Below are positions 13,218 through 57,847 of a stretch of 64,000 nucleotides of DNA, piece by piece. Made by a program: the position numbers and the translations under genes. The notes under the pieces were generated by a model. The model was not told the origin of the DNA, ran no database searches, and was given only the letters and a program-made list of their open reading frames with translations. The stretch comes from a virus (lineage: Duplodnaviria; Caudoviricetes): IMG/VR virus record IMGVR_UViG_3300026549_002532, positions 12,676-76,675 of that record; one strand, 5' to 3'. Position 1 is the stretch's first letter. Every line of letters starts with the position of its first letter.

Positions 13218-13823
13218 TTACTTGCTCTCTTTCTTGGCGCTCTTGCGTGCGGCTTTCTTCTTGGGTGCGCTCTCGGTGAACTGCTGCGGCTCATCGCAAA
13301 TTGCTACTCTCTTGCCGGCTCTCACAATCTTGGGCAGGTATGTGTCGAGGCTTGCGGCAGGAAAAGCGGCTTGTTGGGCGGTGATGTCCTTTGCGCTTGT
13401 ACGGGTGAGGGTGATGCCTAAAACTTCGCTCAATGTCTTTGCATCATCGGCAAAAGAACCATAAAAATCGCCCATGCGGAAAAGCAAAAGTGTGTCGGGG
13501 TGCTTGTGCTTCATGGCTTCAAAAGCCTTTGCCAGTGCGCTCTGCTCGGCGGCTTGCTCGGCTTCGGGTGCTGCGCTCTCCTGCGGTGCGGCTTGCTCGG
13601 CTTGTGCCTTGCTTGCCTCAACGTCAGCCATCAATTTTGTGTAAATAGCTTTGGGCAGGATTGCACCGCTGCGCTTGCGCAATAGGAAACAATAGCGTAA
13701 CGCCTTGATGGGCTGGGCGAAGAAAAATTCATCGCTCTTGGTGTTCTCACTGAGGCGGTAAACGTGCCACATTTGGCTACCGCTCTTAACTTCTCGCTTG
13801 CTTGCTAAAATCAAATTTGCCAT
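13218..13823 (-). CDS. Stand-alone MutS domain I protein (likely start MANLIL at 13823)
   Basis: HPDTLLLFRMGDFY..FADDAKTLSEVLGITLT..FP...LDTYLPKIVRAGKRVAICDE. Confidence 0.85.
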   Translation of the reverse strand: MANLILASKREVKSGSQMWHVYRLSENTKSDEFFFAQPIKALRYCFLLRKRSGAILPKAIYTKLMADVEASKAQAEQAAPQESAAPEAEQAAEQSALAKAFEAMKHKHPDTLLLFRMGDFYGSFADDAKTLSEVLGITLTRTSAKDITAQQAAFPAASLDTYLPKIVRAGKRVAICDEPQQFTESAPKKKAARKSAKKESK

Positions 13824-13872: not shown

Positions 13873-14118
13873 TTATTGCTCGCAATAGACATTGCAGTAA
13901 CTAACTTGTGTACCTTGCGACATAGCCATTTGTGCGGCTTGCTCGCTTGCCTCATCAGCCGTGCTTGCCTCGACTTGGAAAGTGTGTACCTCATTATCGA
14001 AGTCAACCACATCAACCGTGAAATTATTGAGTGCGGTAGAGCGGTAAGCTTTTTTACAAACTCTGCTCTCGGCTGCGGCAGAAGTGAAAAAGTACGATGT
14101 GTTGTAAGGAGCTGTCAT
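13873..14118 (-). CDS. Small hypothetical protein, first gene after hairpin promoter
   Basis: ORF track (shortened to MTAPY start). Confidence 0.5.
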   Translation of the reverse strand: MTAPYNTSYFFTSAAAESRVCKKAYRSTALNNFTVDVVDFDNEVHTFQVEASTADEASEQAAQMAMSQGTQVSYCNVYCEQ

Positions 14119-14127
14119 AACTGTATG

Positions 14128-14398
14128 AATTTTTAGGAGTGAATAAATCATTGATTACGTATATCGCGTATAAGCTTTTTACGGAACTTTATAAAGTGAG
14201 GCAGGAAAGTGACCGGCAGCAAGGCTTGCCCAAAAATTTTCTTCCCGTAGGGCTTGCCATTTTTCGGGCGCAACCCTAAAAATTGAAGAGAAATTTTGGA
14301 GCAACTTGTATAGCCTTGCAGAGAACGGCTGCCCTTAACTTTGTGACGGAAAAACTAATACAGGGCGATAGCAGTAATCAATTATTCACCTAAAAATC
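14128..14398 (-). promoter_or_regulatory. Candidate ssDNA (Frpo-like) hairpin promoter 1
   Basis: ~270 nt imperfect inverted repeat; TAACTTTG 14336-14343 and CTTG ~14315-14318 on right arm pair with non-consensus left arm. Confidence 0.6.
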
Positions 14399-14598
14399 GT
14401 TATGGCGGCTCCCCACATCGTGCCACTTCTGTAGCACCCGAGAGCAGATAAAACAAAGCAAGGAGAAGAACGGTGCCAGCCGTTTCCTCTCCTTACCCTG
14501 AAAAAATAGAACTGCCACCGGCAGTTTCTATAAAACAAAAAGGGTGAGCCATTGCTGACCCACCCACGGCTACGAAAGCCAAAGTTAAAATTTAGCGG

Positions 14599-47582: not shown

Positions 47583-48998
47583 ATGCAAAATATGGCTGAA
47601 AATCAGAACATAGAGTACAAAGAATCGTGGCGCGACGAATATCTGAAATGGATATGCGGCTTCGCCAATGCGCAAGGTGGCAGGATATACATCGGTATTG
47701 CCGACGATCAGAAAGTCGTGGGTGTCAGCAATTCCCACCGCTTGCTGGAAGATATACCCAACAAGATTGTAACAACGCTCGGCATCGTGTGTGATGTCAA
47801 CCTGCTGGAGCGCGAAGGCAAAGACGTTATCGAGATAGTCGTTGAACCGAGCAATATGCCCATCGCATATAAAGGCGAGTATCACATACGCAGCGGTGCG
47901 ACCAAGCAGCAGTTGCGTGGCGTAGCCCTGCAGCAGTTCATCCTGAAGAAAATGGGCTTGTCGTGGGATGAGATTCCTACCGAGGTTGGGATTGACAAAA
48001 TCGACCGTATAGCCATAGAATATTTCTTGCGCAAAGGTATCTTCCACAAACGCCTCAGTCCTGAAGCCATCAATTATACGACCGAAGAAGTATTGCAGAA
48101 CCTGCAACTAATCAACGATGAGGGAAAACTTAAAAATGCCGCATTGTTGCTGTTCGGCAAAGACCCACAACGCCATTTTGTCTCGGCTATATTCCGCATA
48201 GGTCGTTTTGGCGGAGAAAACAATGATTTGCTATCCCAAGACACTATTGAAGGGAATATTCTTCAGATGGGTGACAAAGTGGTCGAAATCCTAAAGAACA
48301 AGTATCTCATTTCTCCAATTCATTATGAGGGAATGGTAAGGGTCGAGACGCTTGAAATTCCCGAAGATGCCCTACGAGAGATATTGTATAATGCTATTTG
48401 CCACAAGGAGTACACAGGCGCACATATCCAAATGCGCGTTTATAATGACCGCATCACTATATGGAATCAAGGTGGATTGCCATTCGGTGTTACCATTGAC
48501 TCTCTTATGGAACAACACTCCTCTCACCCTCGCAACAAAAATATTGCCAACACATTCTTCAAAGCCGGTTTCATTGAGGCTTGGGGTCGTGGTATCGGGA
48601 AAGTTAACGATGAATTCAAGAAAGCTAACCTACCTCTGCCGAAGTATGAGGAGCGAGAAGGTGGTTTTATGGTGACAATACAACGTCCTGAAAATGTGCG
48701 CAATATGTTTTCAGGCCCCTCAAGCACTCCCCAAGTACCCCCCGAGTACCCCCCAAGTACCCCCCAAGTTGACAATCTTGTTTCACGAATGGGAACGGAA
48801 TACTTATCAATAACTGAATTGTTAAACTTGATGGGACTTCGTGACCGCAAATATTTCAGAGCAAATTTCTTAACGCCAGCCATTGAAAAAGGATTTGTCG
48901 AGCTGGAAATTCCTGGGCAGATACGAAATCCGAAACAACGTTACAGATTAACAGGATTAGGTCTGGGCTATCATGGATTTATGAAAGGAGCAAAATAA
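47583..48998 (+). CDS. AlbA_2 (Schlafen-like) plus HATPase_c_4 plus HTH protein
   Basis: ENQNIEYKESW..ICGFANAQGG; LREILYNAICHKEY; FIEAWGRG; own TACCTTTG 47564-47571. Confidence 0.85.
   Translation: MQNMAENQNIEYKESWRDEYLKWICGFANAQGGRIYIGIADDQKVVGVSNSHRLLEDIPNKIVTTLGIVCDVNLLEREGKDVIEIVVEPSNMPIAYKGEYHIRSGATKQQLRGVALQQFILKKMGLSWDEIPTEVGIDKIDRIAIEYFLRKGIFHKRLSPEAINYTTEEVLQNLQLINDEGKLKNAALLLFGKDPQRHFVSAIFRIGRFGGENNDLLSQDTIEGNILQMGDKVVEILKNKYLISPIHYEGMVRVETLEIPEDALREILYNAICHKEYTGAHIQMRVYNDRITIWNQGGLPFGVTIDSLMEQHSSHPRNKNIANTFFKAGFIEAWGRGIGKVNDEFKKANLPLPKYEEREGGFMVTIQRPENVRNMFSGPSSTPQVPPEYPPSTPQVDNLVSRMGTEYLSITELLNLMGLRDRKYFRANFLTPAIEKGFVELEIPGQIRNPKQRYRLTGLGLGYHGFMKGAK
48727..48770 (+). repeat. 4 x 11 bp tandem repeat CCCCCCAAGTA inside CDS
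   Basis: ctccccaagta ccccccgagta ccccccaagta ccccccaagtt. Confidence 0.9.
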
Positions 48999-49128: not shown

Positions 49129-49791
49129 CTAATCGCGGAAGACATAGCCATTCCAGAAAGTGAAGCCATCCAAGAAAATATCTCTTGCGAAAGCCTTGAT
49201 GTCAAAGTAATTACGCAGGTACGAGGGCATCTCAGCGTAATAGCCGCAATCCTCGGCAAGCTGCTCGGCGTAATCTTCTTCGCTGTCGAACTTTCCGCAA
49301 TAGGCCTCACGGAACTCATAAAAGAGATTGTCGCCGTCAGTGTAACTGCCGTACTTGCAATCAAGGAAAGCCTCGAAAGCCTCCTGCTCATCCTCATCAA
49401 GCCCGGCGAACTCGCGTACATTGTCGAAATCCTGTTCTGTGAAAGAGCCCTCGCGGTAGAACTGACCCGGGAATCCCATGTAATCTTGGAACATGTACTC
49501 CGGATCCTGCTCAAAGCGGTGAATCCAGCGGCAGACCATCATGAACTCCTCGTAATCGGCGCAAGCCTCGATGGAGACCCATGCTCCGCGCAGCGACCCC
49601 GAGGCGTATGCCCCGTATGACCCCACGTAGATAGCCGCTACTTCCTCATCGGGGTGAGCGATGAACTGCTCCAAATCCACTTCCTCAACCCCGTAGGGAT
49701 TGTTGATGTTCTCGACAGCCTTTACAGGCTCTTGTGCCTGGGTGCTTTGAGCACCGCTCGCAACTTCTGAAAATTTGTGATTTTTCTCCAT
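49129..49791 (-). CDS. ardA: Antirestriction protein ArdA (likely start MEKNH)
   Basis: IYVGSYGAYASGSLRGAW, PEYMFQDY, YCGKFDSEEDYA, YFDIKAFARD; highly acidic. Confidence 0.9.
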   Translation of the reverse strand: MEKNHKFSEVASGAQSTQAQEPVKAVENINNPYGVEEVDLEQFIAHPDEEVAAIYVGSYGAYASGSLRGAWVSIEACADYEEFMMVCRWIHRFEQDPEYMFQDYMGFPGQFYREGSFTEQDFDNVREFAGLDEDEQEAFEAFLDCKYGSYTDGDNLFYEFREAYCGKFDSEEDYAEQLAEDCGYYAEMPSYLRNYFDIKAFARDIFLDGFTFWNGYVFRD

Positions 49792-49838
49792 GACAGTGAA
49801 AAATTTATTGTGAAACAATCGAGTGAACTTGTAATCGC

Positions 49839-50039
49839 TCTTATTTGAGCTTTTACACTGCCTGCAAAGTGCGACGGCGAACACTTAGCAAGGATTGACC
49901 GAAAAAAATTACCCCTCGCGGGCCCGAAAAATTTTAGCCGGCACGGTCTCAAATTTTTTCATTTTTTTCGACCGTCAACATCGCCTGTCCTTGCGTGTTA
50001 AGACGGTGCATTAACTTTGCAGCGTAAAAGCCAAAAAGA
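49839..50039 (-). promoter_or_regulatory. Candidate ssDNA (Frpo-like) hairpin promoter 2
   Basis: Stems ctgcaaagt/actttgcag, gcaagga/tccttgc, cgaaaaaaat/atttttttcg; TAACTTTG 50012-50019 only on right arm. Confidence 0.65.
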
Positions 50040-50775
50040 GCCGATGCCCACAAGGAGCGAGTGTGCAGCGATAGATTTTGTCATGGAGAGCGCAGCAATC
50101 ACATCAAGAAGTGAGCGATTGCGTCCAACAAAGCACCGGCCATGAGGCGTAAAGCCGAGAACACAATCCCGAAGGAGAACAATGAAGGTGTGGATTGGGG
50201 CAGTCGCCCACCCGAGGAAGTGCCGCTGCGTGGGGGCGTTCGCTGCACGCACCCAGTGCGCCACGGAGCACTCCATTGAGCGCAGTCGCCGATTAGTTCA
50301 GAAAGTCTGCCGTTCACCGCATTGAGCAGAGGAGTACACCAAGATACAAGGGCAACCGAGTCAGTAAGCGAGGGTTCAAGGAGCAGGATTCAATGCACGC
50401 CGCCGAGCCGATTAGAACCAAGATGGGCAGGAAGCCGAGGCTTTTCCGCAATACGGCAGACTGACAGCGACAATCAATGAGAGCCGTGATATTGCGTAAA
50501 GTAGGCGAAGAATAGCCGAGCGGTGATGATTGTGTGCGTCCATTACGCTTTGCCCGACACCATTCCATAGTTACACAACGACATCAAGGCAATCAGCAAG
50601 AGACTTGGACGGCTCCACGGAATGGCTGCTCCGCCACCAGTCACGTGCCACATCGGGTGAGGATGAATCACTTATTGCCCACCGATGATGATAAAAAGGC
50701 GACGGCAAGCGTTTCCCAACGACTGCCGCCTAAAGTAAAAAGGTATTTCTTTGTATGAAAAAAATCTACATAGTT

Positions 50776-51204
50776 CTATCTGGTGATGCTGCATGGGATT
50801 AACGCTTTCTGCGCGTAGAGCGTGATTTCGACCGTCCAGACCGCAGGATCGCCGTTAGGCGTTCCTGTGTCGCGCGTGACTTTCACGATAGGTCGGGGCT
50901 TCTCACGCTGCCCGATGATGTACGACTGGCCATTGCAGTCGGTGACGATGTAGGCGACGTGCCGCTGCAGCGGCAAGGCATCGAGGGTCTTGAAGCGCAG
51001 AGTGACCTGCTCAATCCTGCCGTTGTTGTTATAGATGGATTCCGCCTCGCAGGTGGGCACGCCGCAGAACGCGATAGGTGTAATGTCGGTGAACACGCCC
51101 ACAGGAATACCGGCGAGGTGCTTATACATTATCTCACGCTGCAAATTCACCGAAGGCACATGCCCGATGAATTTGATGCCCGGAAGTGATTGAGTCTGTC
51201 TCAT
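50776..51204 (-). CDS. Hypothetical phage protein, probable first late gene
   Basis: ORF track; terminator ~50695-50735. Confidence 0.65.
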   Translation of the reverse strand: MRQTQSLPGIKFIGHVPSVNLQREIMYKHLAGIPVGVFTDITPIAFCGVPTCEAESIYNNNGRIEQVTLRFKTLDALPLQRHVAYIVTDCNGQSYIIGQREKPRPIVKVTRDTGTPNGDPAVWTVEITLYAQKALIPCSITR

Positions 51205-54622: not shown

Positions 54623-54671
54623 CGGGATTGGAAAAGTTGAGCGAATTGCGGAGTAGGTCGGAATGAATTTT

Positions 54672-55490
54672 ATGGCAAAAGCAAAATTCTTTCTCGACAC
54701 ACGGCGAAGCAAGCCGGGGTCGCCATCGGTCTTGAAGGTGGCAATCGGTCACCGCGACAAGACTTCGTACATTTCACTGACTGCACGGCTGCTCCCCGAG
54801 CAGTGGGATGCAGAGCACTCACTGGTGATCAACCACCCGGAGCAGCAGTTGCTGAACATCTATATTATGGGTGTAAAGCAGCAAGTTGACCGAACCATCT
54901 TTATCCTTGCCGACAATGGCAGTCTTCAATCTATGACTGCCAATGACATCAAGCTGGAGATTGAGCGCAAACTCAATCCCGAAAAAGTCGAGGAAATGGA
55001 GCAAAAGCAACGTAGCAAGAACCTGTTCGCTGCACGTTACTTGAAGTTCACGGAGAGCAAGATAGGCAGCACTCACCGCATTTATATGGAAACATACAAG
55101 CGTATGTTAGAGTTCGCCGGTGAGAAGCTGAATAGCCTTGCTTTTGAGGACATTACAAAGGAATGGATTATCAGTTTTTATAACTACATGGCTCCACAGT
55201 CACCGTCACGCAATGCCCGCAACATCCACCTGCGGAACATTCGCGCCGTGTTTAACGAAGCGATTGACGATGAGGTGACTACGTTCTATCCTTTCCGCCG
55301 TTTCCAGATTAAGAATGAGGCTACCCGCAAGCGTAACCTCAAAGTTGAGGACTTCCGCAAGTTCATCAACTTTCCCTGCGAGGAGCACGCTCAAAAGTAC
55401 CTTGACATGTTCAAGCTGATGTTCATGCTTCTGGGCATTAACATCGTTGACTTGTGCAACCTCAAAGAAATTGATAGTGAGGGGCGTATC
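54672..55490 (+). pseudogene. Truncated tyrosine integrase
   Basis: Arm-binding and SAM-like domains, RNIRAVFNEA, GINIVDL; breaks after GRI, losing HxxR and catalytic Tyr. Confidence 0.85.
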
Positions 55491-55530
55491 AATAAAGGCA
55501 AGGAGCACAAGAAATACGAGTTCGGACGAC
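55488..55530 (+). mobile_element. Short IS5-family transposase scrap
   Basis: NKGKEHKKYEFG motif fused in frame to integrase. Confidence 0.55.
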
Positions 55531-55639
55531 AAACCAGCCGCAGGTCTGCCTATGCGCCCTTTTGTTGCACTTTGGGTCGGGCGGGGGAAAGAAAAGGCTC
55601 ACCGATTGGCGAGCCTTTAAGGATGCGGTGTGTGAAATG

Positions 55640-57847
55640 TTATTTCACAACGAACTTTTTGCCGTCTTGGATGACGATGCCCTTGTAGTCATCGCCAACG
55701 GGCTGACCCATGAGGTTGTAGCGCTGGCCGCTGCGGGGCTGCGCTGCGTTGAGGTCTTGGACACCAGTAACGGTGGCCTCCTTGAACGTGGCGTTCACGT
55801 AAACGGGAGCAGCCGGCATCTCGAAGGTGAAGGTGTTCAGATCGGTGCCAGGGATAATGTCCACTGAGCCGCCACGCAGACGTATCAGTGCGCCGCTTGG
55901 CTCGGCCTCGGGGCTGAAAGTCACGGTGAGCGTTTCAATCTCATAGCCGTTGTCGGGGGTGACGGTCAGCGTCACGGTCTCGCCGATGGAGGCGGCCTCC
56001 TTGTTGCTGGTCACGGTGCCGTGCTCAAACGATTCGGGCACATTGATGGCTAACAGCGGCGACACCACGGTCAGGTGAATGAGGGATGCATTAAAATTAC
56101 TAACAAAGGTAACAACGCTGTAGGTGACTCCAGCCTCAAGCGTGGCTGTGAATTCCAAGTCTTCACCTTGCGATTCTTCATGATTAAGAATATCCTCTCC
56201 AAGCAACACCCCAACTCCAGGCAAGAGCGAAGCGTCGCCAGTGGTGCGGAAAGTGTACTCACCGCTCACCGGAGGGGTGAAGGGATACATAAAGTCTACG
56301 CCACACGGAGCGTAAATCTCATTCTCGCCTACCGTGATAGGAGCGATGTCGTACTTGGCCACGTTCAGGATGCCGCTGCTGTCGCCCTGTGGAAGCATAG
56401 TTACAACCGAATAGGTTACACCCGCCTCAAGCATGGCGGCCGCACAGGGTGTTTGCTCCGGTTCTTGGGGCATGCCCATCGATATCTTCTCTCCTTCTTC
56501 ATCCAATGCAACAAGGAACATAGCCTCATCGTCACCATTCAACGTGAAGATGTAGGCACCGCTCTCGGTGGGCGTAAAGAAATAGACTGTGGGTTCGTTG
56601 ACCAAAGCCACCTCGTTGTCGCCCATTTGGAGCACGTTGTCATCGCCAACCGGCGACCCTCCATCCTCCGACACGTTCAGGTGGATGAAAGCGCCATGGC
56701 TGGTACCTACACGCACTCTAAAGGCGTAGGCGACTCCTGCCTGAAGCGTGACGGTTATATTTATGTCTGTTTGATTAGGTACACAGTAATCTATCACGTC
56801 ATCTCCAAGCATCACCGCCGCTGCGGGATTCAATGCAGCAAAGCCAGAGGTGCTGAAGGTGTACTCACCGCTCTCTTCGGGAATAAAGGGATAGTAGAAT
56901 TCATTACCATTCGGAGCGTAAATCTCATTATCACCCACCGTGATGGGAGCGAGTTCATACTTGGAGATGTTCAGGATGGGAGCAACGTCGTTGCTTCCAT
57001 AGACATTAGCAATAGCCATAACCCCATAGGTGACATTCGCGTCGAGCATAACGCCCGATGAGAGCGTTTCTAACGGTGGTGCATAGCCCATTGCAATCAT
57101 ATCGTTTCCCGAAGATATCTGTACCACCGCATCCACGTCACAATCCATCGTGAAGATGTAGGCTCCGCTCTCGGTGGGCGTAAAGGCATAACTAATCATG
57201 TCGACAACATTCACCTCGTTGTCGCCCAGTTGCAGGGTTGGCATCTCGCCCGACCCGCTGATGGTGACATCGGCGGCCGGCATGGTGAAGGAGTAAACGC
57301 TGCCTGACTCTGTGATTTCGACAGGCTCGCCATTGGCGGTCGCGGTGAGGCTGTTGATGGTCACGCCCGCGTTAGCCGTCAGTTTCACATTCTCCCCCTC
57401 GAAAGCCACGTATGGCAGTGGTCTCAACATATTCAGGAGGCCGGCGCTCGCGGCGTCGGTGCTGACGAGATAACCCTTGCTCACGACGACATTCGCATCG
57501 CCGGATTCACCTTCAAGATACGCACGTAAACGCAATTTGTACGTTAGCCCGGCCTCCAGCTTCTGTGTCCAAGCAAGGTGGCCGACATAAGTGTTCGTCG
57601 CCTCGTCTAGTTCGGATAGGGCATCAGCATAGTCTGGGCTATCCATGTTGATTGCAAAATCTAGTTTCACATCCGACGTACCGACGAACACATAGTAGTC
57701 GGTCTCCTCGGGAGTAAACGACAGATAGACGCCATCGTTAGTGATGGTGAACGGGCCGTTGTCGCCCACCTGGAGCGGCGTGAAGTCCTGTGCCCACACC
57801 GTGGCGGTGGTGAGCAGTGCGAAAAGAAATAGTAATACTTTTTTCAT
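55640..57847 (-). CDS. Secreted repeat surface protein
   Basis: Signal peptide; repeated GDNE..FTPxESGxYxFT modules; InlB-B-repeat-like domain; YNLMGQPV..KGIVIQDGKK tail. Confidence 0.8.
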   Translation of the reverse strand: MKKVLLFLFALLTTATVWAQDFTPLQVGDNGPFTITNDGVYLSFTPEETDYYVFVGTSDVKLDFAINMDSPDYADALSELDEATNTYVGHLAWTQKLEAGLTYKLRLRAYLEGESGDANVVVSKGYLVSTDAASAGLLNMLRPLPYVAFEGENVKLTANAGVTINSLTATANGEPVEITESGSVYSFTMPAADVTISGSGEMPTLQLGDNEVNVVDMISYAFTPTESGAYIFTMDCDVDAVVQISSGNDMIAMGYAPPLETLSSGVMLDANVTYGVMAIANVYGSNDVAPILNISKYELAPITVGDNEIYAPNGNEFYYPFIPEESGEYTFSTSGFAALNPAAAVMLGDDVIDYCVPNQTDINITVTLQAGVAYAFRVRVGTSHGAFIHLNVSEDGGSPVGDDNVLQMGDNEVALVNEPTVYFFTPTESGAYIFTLNGDDEAMFLVALDEEGEKISMGMPQEPEQTPCAAAMLEAGVTYSVVTMLPQGDSSGILNVAKYDIAPITVGENEIYAPCGVDFMYPFTPPVSGEYTFRTTGDASLLPGVGVLLGEDILNHEESQGEDLEFTATLEAGVTYSVVTFVSNFNASLIHLTVVSPLLAINVPESFEHGTVTSNKEAASIGETVTLTVTPDNGYEIETLTVTFSPEAEPSGALIRLRGGSVDIIPGTDLNTFTFEMPAAPVYVNATFKEATVTGVQDLNAAQPRSGQRYNLMGQPVGDDYKGIVIQDGKKFVVK

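Follow-up and report, generated by a model that had tools for sequence, protein, structure and literature searches.

The DNA analysed here, referred to as the window, is a 64,000-nt stretch comprising bases 12676-76675 of a 76.7-kb IMG/VR provirus (IMGVR_UViG_3300026549_002532). The hosts are rumen and gut Bacteroidales (Prevotellaceae, Muribaculaceae and 'Porphyromonadaceae'), as judged from the labels of related MAGs and from the sequencing runs that hold the stretch. The anti-restriction gene ardA lies on the minus strand. Upstream of ardA, the minus-strand genes are an HTH_17 excisionase-like gene, a DnaD/O-like initiator, a DnaC-like loader and two unknown genes, followed by about 730 nt without an ORF and a ~200-nt imperfect hairpin. 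Downstream of ardA are a Schlafen/AlbA gene on the other strand and a ClpP-type head protease, followed by further genes and a large terminase. A cI-like HTH gene and an integrase lie on the + strand at 53.9-55.7 kb. No relaxase, T4SS coupling protein or Mob_Pre was found in the 76.7-kb provirus. The features are collected in Table 1. Handles beginning with L denote individual loci recovered in this study.

Table 1. Features of the two hairpin cassettes and their surroundings (window coordinates).
Position	Strand	Feature	Basis
49834-50045	+	Whole imperfect hairpin, folded on the template strand of ardA	DNA fold; covariance model R1
49847-49909	+	Proximal (left) arm; in the hairpin form the template strand, running directly into the ardA template	Pair ladder; 97% identical to L018, although the flanks of the two loci cannot be aligned
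49857-49862	+	Four extra template-strand bases (ACT and C), unpaired just downstream of the -7 box, near the predicted start site	Pair ladder; same 4-nt excess in all clades, with differing sequence
49865-49872	-	Degenerate -7 box GCACTTTG on the ardA-sense strand, lacking the TA (CAAAGTGC on the + strand)	Sequence
49910-49960	+	A/T-rich apex with two 25-nt direct-repeat units (family D1) and small stems; the least conserved part	Apex identity 20-59%, against 57-97% for the proximal and 49-95% for the distal arm; relatives have a shorter apex with the motif TACTACCCGCAGGGCTGGAGA
49961-50033	+	Distal (right) arm, the non-template strand of the proposed hairpin promoter	Fold, alignment and covariation
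49991-49993	+	-33-like TTG (within CCTTGC), fully paired with GCAAGG 49888-49893	Invariant in 13 of 13 representatives; helix 4 is 98.9% paired; 18-nt spacer to the -7 box
50012-50019	+	Perfect Bacteroidota -7 box TAACTTTG; TA unpaired, CTTTG paired	Only TAnnTTTG on either strand in 49780-50800
49792-49846	-	Conserved leader between the hairpin base and the ATG; predicted start near 49855, giving a 5' UTR of about 64 nt (inferred)	Leader motifs shared by both cassettes
49129-49791	-	ardA (220 aa plus stop; coding 49132-49791)	Pfam PF07275, E = 5e-31, 108.8 bits against a cut-off of 27; PHROG 2059, anti-restriction protein
50046-50775	.	ORF-less spacer upstream of the hairpin	Substitutions against L010 show no codon periodicity, with many indels not divisible by 3; not conserved beyond the closest clade
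50694-50727	-	Terminator-like stem followed by a U-run, after gene 50776-51204 (tentative)	RNA fold; not picked up by the pattern scan
47583-48998	opposite to ardA	Gene with Schlafen/AlbA_2, HATPase_c_4 and Fic-like_C domains; looks like an inserted moron	Absent from some relatives (L010, L032)
54663-55688	+	Integrase ORF (341 aa) with only the arm-binding and SAM-like domains	Relatives are 411-412 aa; abuts a PA14/Flg_new surface-protein gene on the other strand
14173-14357	+	Second copy of the hairpin, with TAACTTTG at 14336-14343 and TTG 17 nt upstream	R1, 81.8 bits, E = 8e-20
13873-14118	-	81-aa cargo gene of the second cassette; ATG 54 nt from the hairpin	Sequence; no Pfam family
13218-13823	-	Gene for a protein with MutS domain I only (201 aa), downstream of the 81-aa gene	Pfam PF01624, E = 4e-22
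14510-14565	-	Two intrinsic terminators closing the preceding operon before the second hairpin	Pattern scan

A conserved hairpin with inverted promoter boxes upstream of ardA

A sequence-only reading of the region had described an imperfect hairpin whose right arm carries a perfect Bacteroidetes -7 box with a CTTG about 18 bp upstream, and whose left arm is non-consensus on the coding strand. To examine this, we folded the + strand of 49830-50050 as DNA. It formed one long imperfect hairpin, pairing 49834-49909 with 49961-50045, at -52.6 kcal/mol, whereas shuffled sequences averaged -27.3 kcal/mol (z = -7.7) and 0 of 200 shuffles folded as well. The - strand folded almost as well (-51.4 kcal/mol). 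In the fold, TTAA 50011-50014 is bulged, while in an alternative register T50012 faces C and A50013 faces G, so that the TA of the perfect box is unpaired either way. Every detail of the earlier observation was confirmed. The T-run that would be expected of an intrinsic terminator does not follow either side of the hairpin, and an Rfam scan of the whole window gave no match at the gathering score. A sigma-70 pattern scan, which is not suited to Bacteroidota, gave nothing useful. GC and AT skew, considered as a clue to which strand is exposed, continued unchanged into the flanking host genes and were not used.

To determine if the hairpin is conserved, we searched for homologous loci. A blastn search with ardA and its upstream region against 50,697 phage records gave no match, and neither a related-locus search with the single ArdA protein nor an exact 24-mer search in viral contigs found anything. 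Relatives were instead recovered through protein clusters, an alignment-based scan and a degenerate pattern, which yielded ArdA homologues at 98% down to 33% identity in metagenomes and MAGs. Every locus examined with enough upstream sequence had at least 400 nt without a called gene before ardA, and each had a hairpin of 150-190 nt ending about 55 nt before the ATG. A full-length copy lies 52-56 nt before ardA in about 45 loci. The hairpin stays with ardA while the genes further upstream differ, and include phage replication genes, an OLD-nuclease plus UvrD pair, RloB/AAA, a divergent MarR-like gene and a primase. The site just upstream or downstream of the ardA cassette is a hotspot for defence genes in relatives (L014 1-3368, L024 1-3092 and L029 11181-19118), with an OLD-family nuclease and a UvrD-like helicase (Gabija-like), a KAP NTPase with RloB and an AAA protein, and a complete type I restriction-modification system with a Schlafen-domain gene right after ardA. 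At least a dozen independent contigs (L035, L036, L045, L053, L054, L063, L064, L091, L095, L104, L137, L138 and L155) end inside the hairpin or within about 160 nt beyond its distal arm, which could reflect an assembly break at the palindrome, strain variation that starts there, or a physical DNA end.

In an alignment of 13 representatives, overall identity falls to 52-55%. On a 51-pair structure, however, 86.4% of 648 pair cells were standard pairs, compared to 38-44% when the partners were slid by 1-3 columns, and 16 of 51 pairs had changed on both sides. The covariation score was 0.225 against 0.105, and 0 of 500 shuffles reached it. The absence of compensatory changes had been named beforehand as a refutation of the hairpin promoter, and such changes are present. 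Gene conversion between the arms is an unlikely cause of the apparent covariation, because perfect identity between the arms never runs beyond about 12 bp and the specific mismatches and bulges persist across clades. Wobble cells were few (G-T 64 and A-C 32, against 1345 Watson-Crick) and leaned towards the template strand, although this bias is only 2:1 among related sequences. DNA folding energy favoured the + strand in 14 of 15 sequences.

A covariance model built from this structure (R1) scored the window copy at 184 bits on the + strand and at 12 bits on the - strand, so the two arms are not interchangeable. In 33 of 33 full-length hits the distal arm carries TAACTTTG or TACCTTTG on the template strand, with TTG 17-18 nt upstream, or 22 nt in one distant subgroup. 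In contrast, TA was found in the gene-sense box of the proximal arm in 0 of 29 strong hits, where the box reads GCACTTTG, GCTCTTTG, ACACTTTG, GCACTTTT, GCACTCTG or TCACTTTA. The A of TA on the distal arm always faces an invariant G. One distant subgroup (L071 and L074-L076), in which the hairpin lies about 850 nt upstream of ardA, has the TA fully paired and reads TACCTTTT on the sense arm, a more symmetrical form that may work as an ordinary duplex promoter.

Second copies, cargo genes and conjugative elements

R1 found exactly one more copy in the window, on the same strand. The gene pair behind it, encoding the 81-aa protein and the MutS-domain-I protein (mismatch binding), also lies behind a hairpin in L020, in tandem with the ardA cassette. 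A search of the ESM Atlas with the 81-aa protein returned only unnamed viral clusters. Both proteins are candidates for new anti-defence or DNA-handling functions. Whole-genome scans gave up to six copies per MAG, but hits in only 3 of 150 other Bacteroidales genomes sampled. A pattern scan of IMG/VR followed by R1 gave 64 further hits. The genes directly behind them were a 71-95-aa family with 41 members, to which the 81-aa ORF belongs and which is the commonest cargo family in viral contigs, ArdA with 7 members, and single or paired cases of LPD11, DUF1281_C, a DnaJ-domain protein and unknown proteins. ArdA, LPD11 and DUF1281_C are typical of leading regions and polyvalent proteins. The offset from hairpin to ATG was 52-56 nt for ArdA and for the 81-aa family in the MAG hits. 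Within any one element all copies share a strand, and orientation relative to the gene was the same in all of about 110 hits.

The hairpin occurs once per locus with a fixed neighbour gene and in only two copies in the provirus, and the idea of a MITE or repeat was therefore rejected. A packaging site or replication origin was set aside, because the hairpin occurs twice in the phage and also in transposons, always before a gene, and its apex with the direct repeats is not conserved.

We next asked whether related hairpins occur in conjugative elements. ArdA genes of a shorter kind (41% identical to that of the window) were found in other Bacteroidales genomes, behind about 725 nt without an ORF. 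This stretch holds a distantly related hairpin of about 290 nt (-77 kcal/mol, z = -7.9) with an inverted TACCTTTG, or TACTTTTG in one locus, and a TTTG. R1 picked these hairpins up weakly but at the right place and strand (13-21 bits; 35 bits for L104), and they share the apical motif TACTACCCGCAGGGCTGGAGA with many phage copies. Their spacer from TTG to the -7 box is 22-23 nt, longer than usual. One such locus is inside a CTnDOT-like conjugative transposon, with integrase, TraJ, TraM, TraN, relaxase and coupling protein. In addition, a 64.6-kb record that IMG/VR calls a provirus (G406; locus L201, G406:C1:6000-25900) has a relaxase operon and no ClpP head protease, and carries five co-oriented hairpins around the relaxase operon, with cargo including DUF1281_C and LPD11. 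It is probably a mobilisable or conjugative element and not a phage. Its layout is like the plasmid 'anti-defence islands' with several Frpo copies (PMC11541004). These locations do not by themselves identify the transferred strand, and 4 of 5 hairpin-bearing genomes searched had no relaxase at all. In the provirus itself, the hairpin lies among phage replication and head genes rather than in the leading region of a conjugative element.

Interpretation and rival readings

Collectively, we favour, with moderate confidence, a portable expression cassette consisting of a structured promoter, a leader of about 55 nt and the gene. In this view the promoter exists only when the template (+) strand pairs with itself, either as ssDNA or as an extruded cruciform arm. 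The distal arm would then supply the non-template strand of a Bacteroidota sigma-A promoter, TTG-N18-TAACTTTG, with the -33 region and the TTTG half of the -7 box paired. By analogy with A-11 of sigma-70 promoters, the unpaired A and the small loop of four template bases would act as a pre-opened bubble, and RNA polymerase would start near 49855, run down the proximal arm and on along the + strand, and so make ardA mRNA. In ordinary duplex DNA the ardA-sense strand offers only GCACTTTG and the perfect box points away from ardA, so the gene would be off, or nearly off, in the resting prophage and fire only transiently. The second copy would drive the 81-aa and MutS-domain-I genes, and relatives would drive LPD11, DUF1281_C and DnaJ-domain genes, which suggests a small regulon for establishment or anti-defence. 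The structure, its covariation, the conserved asymmetry, the modular spread and the presence in conjugative elements come directly from the analysis, whereas the use of the folded form by polymerase, its dependence on ssDNA, the start site and the off state in dsDNA are inferred. The lack of TA in the gene-sense box is only an indirect hint that the promoter is active on ssDNA and inactive once the DNA is double-stranded.

The sequence-only reading had proposed that the right arm becomes the non-template strand of a leftward promoter when the + strand folds, that ArdA is expressed from ssDNA as from Frpo/ssi promoters, and that this hints at conjugative transfer, mobilisation or ssDNA intermediates. 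This interpretation is supported in part: the geometry is coherent and has support from the comparative evidence, but neither an ssDNA stage nor a conjugative function was seen in this prophage. A tailed temperate phage is not known to enter as ssDNA. Conjugative transfer of the phage, for example as a passenger of chromosomal or transposon mobilisation, is therefore only one candidate, and cruciform extrusion on supercoiled circular phage DNA or exposure of the template strand during replication are equally possible sources of the folded form. The short integrase ORF may be truncated and the prophage defective at that end.

Four other readings were weighed. It is possible, though we consider it unlikely, that the region is an ordinary duplex-DNA control region, in which the distal box is a rightward promoter making an antisense or insulating transcript over the ORF-less spacer, ardA is transcribed from the weak proximal box or with an activator, and the inverted repeat is a protein-binding or insulating feature. 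TTG-N18-TAACTTTG is a consensus promoter in duplex DNA, and this could be its real use or could coexist with the hairpin form. Every locus examined with enough upstream sequence keeps 200-700 nt without a called gene beyond the hairpin, which could absorb such a transcript. Low-depth Logan contigs from RNA libraries (depth 2-5) cover ardA, the hairpin and the spacer in patches, including the spacer and right arm, but they cannot show starts or strand, may be DNA carry-over and say nothing either way about a transcript. However, nothing conserved lies downstream of the rightward box, the flank cannot be aligned between clades, and the neighbours on that side differ in identity and direction. 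Pairing covaries along about 70 nt of each arm, far beyond any operator, and this reading does not explain why the sense-strand box lacks TA while still pairing over TTTG. A 5' leader structure acting at the RNA level, for processing, stability or attenuation of read-through from the replication operon, is also unlikely. The upstream replication genes do point the same way as ardA, and one RNA-library contig (depth 3.3, not shown to be RNA) spans the whole hairpin and the start of ardA. Against this, there is no Rfam match and no U-tract on either side, terminators before the second cassette make read-through unlikely there, G-U-type cells are rare (about 6% of pair cells with letters, both kinds together) and fewer on the gene-sense strand (A-C 32 against G-T 64), and the invariant blocks coincide with the -33 and -7 consensus at the right spacing on the opposite strand, which an RNA role does not predict.

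A sub-variant of the hairpin reading is that the folded strand recruits RNA polymerase mainly to make a primer for complementary-strand synthesis, with gene expression secondary. The architecture would be the same, primer synthesis is a documented proposal for Frpo (PMC12672017; Masai and Arai 1997, as cited in PMC9849209), and the element lies next to the phage replication module. We consider this doubtful, since the fixed offset to an ATG, the conserved leader and the changing cargo genes point to mRNA production, and there are several copies per element, including one 35 kb from the replication genes. Finally, a promoter pointing away from its gene and flanked by inverted repeats is the hallmark of phase-variable invertible promoters of Bacteroidales (PMC8748976, PMC4747536). 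This reading is close to refuted: none of about 110 hits from many independent samples is flipped, in a count that does not draw on raw reads, covariation runs through the inner helices and not only the ends, the promoter lies inside the repeat arm, and no dedicated invertase lies next to it.

Significance and relation to known systems

If the favoured reading is right, structure-gated 'zygotic' promoters would extend from enterobacterial plasmids to Bacteroidota, whose sigma factor reads a different promoter, giving a natural test of how RNA polymerase recognises a pre-melted -7 element. Phages and conjugative transposons of the gut and rumen would share a portable early-expression module, and the covariance model could serve as a search handle for new anti-defence genes, as the 71-95-aa family, the MutS-domain-I protein and others already come out this way. 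It would also raise the question of where the single strand, or the cruciform, comes from in a phage. A promoter silent in the integrated duplex but firing on entry would be a useful part for engineering Bacteroides. More tentatively, temperate phages of rumen and gut Bacteroidales may carry, and share with conjugative transposons, a family of host-polymerase promoters that exist only as an intrastrand hairpin of the template strand. They may use it to fire a small anti-defence and establishment regulon (ArdA, the 71-95-aa family, MutS-domain-I, LPD11 and DUF1281_C) only while their DNA is single-stranded or extruded, during conjugal hitch-hiking of the prophage, replication, or supercoiling after entry. 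This would be the first Frpo-type promoter outside proteobacterial plasmids, the first built on the -33/-7 promoter type and the first in a phage. Full-text searches found no report of such promoters in Bacteroidota or in phages.

In single-strand origins (sso) of rolling-circle plasmids and the minus-strand origin of filamentous phages such as M13, a folded single strand mimics a promoter for host RNA polymerase. Those elements make short primers and are not known to be coupled to a downstream ORF, and no rolling-circle Rep gene or double-strand origin was seen here. The early promoters of coliphage N4, which are hairpins extruded from supercoiled DNA with help from SSB, are a precedent for a dsDNA phage that uses hairpin-form promoters without ssDNA entry. 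The N4 hairpins are 5-7 bp and are read by a polymerase carried in the virion, not by the host holoenzyme, and they are not known to mimic -33/-7 boxes. The invertible promoters of Bacteroidales (PMC8748976) likewise have a TAnnTTTG promoter between inverted repeats, facing away from its gene, but here no flipped copies were found, the pairing is selected all along the arms and the promoter lies within the repeat.

The closest systems are the Frpo and ssi promoters, non-coding leading-region sequences of IncF and IncI conjugative plasmids (classes 1-3, of which class 2 drives ardA and klcA). Their single-stranded form folds to rebuild -35 and -10 boxes, recruits RNA polymerase, drives ssb, psiB, ardA and similar genes, and is switched off when the DNA becomes double-stranded (PMC9849209, PMC12672017, PMC11541004). 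As a positive control, we folded the region upstream of ssb (Frpo2) on plasmid F, which also formed a very long hairpin (-119 kcal/mol over 479 nt), but a strict -35/-10 scan (at least 10 of 12 matches) found no boxes on either strand, so the control did not validate the box logic. Like Frpo, the present family comprises long non-coding imperfect hairpins directly upstream of anti-defence or establishment genes, ardA included, with the host sigma-factor boxes rebuilt on the arm that is non-template only when folded, several co-oriented copies per element, and relatives beside relaxase or tra genes. In contrast, it has no sequence similarity to Frpo (blastn of the hairpin against 72,556 plasmids gave no match), carries Bacteroidota -33 TTG and -7 TAnnTTTG boxes rather than -35/-10, belongs to a different host phylum, and here sits between the replication and head modules of a prophage that has no transfer genes. 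We therefore regard it as putatively working like Frpo, with activity on ssDNA inferred by analogy, and not as a member of the Frpo sequence families.
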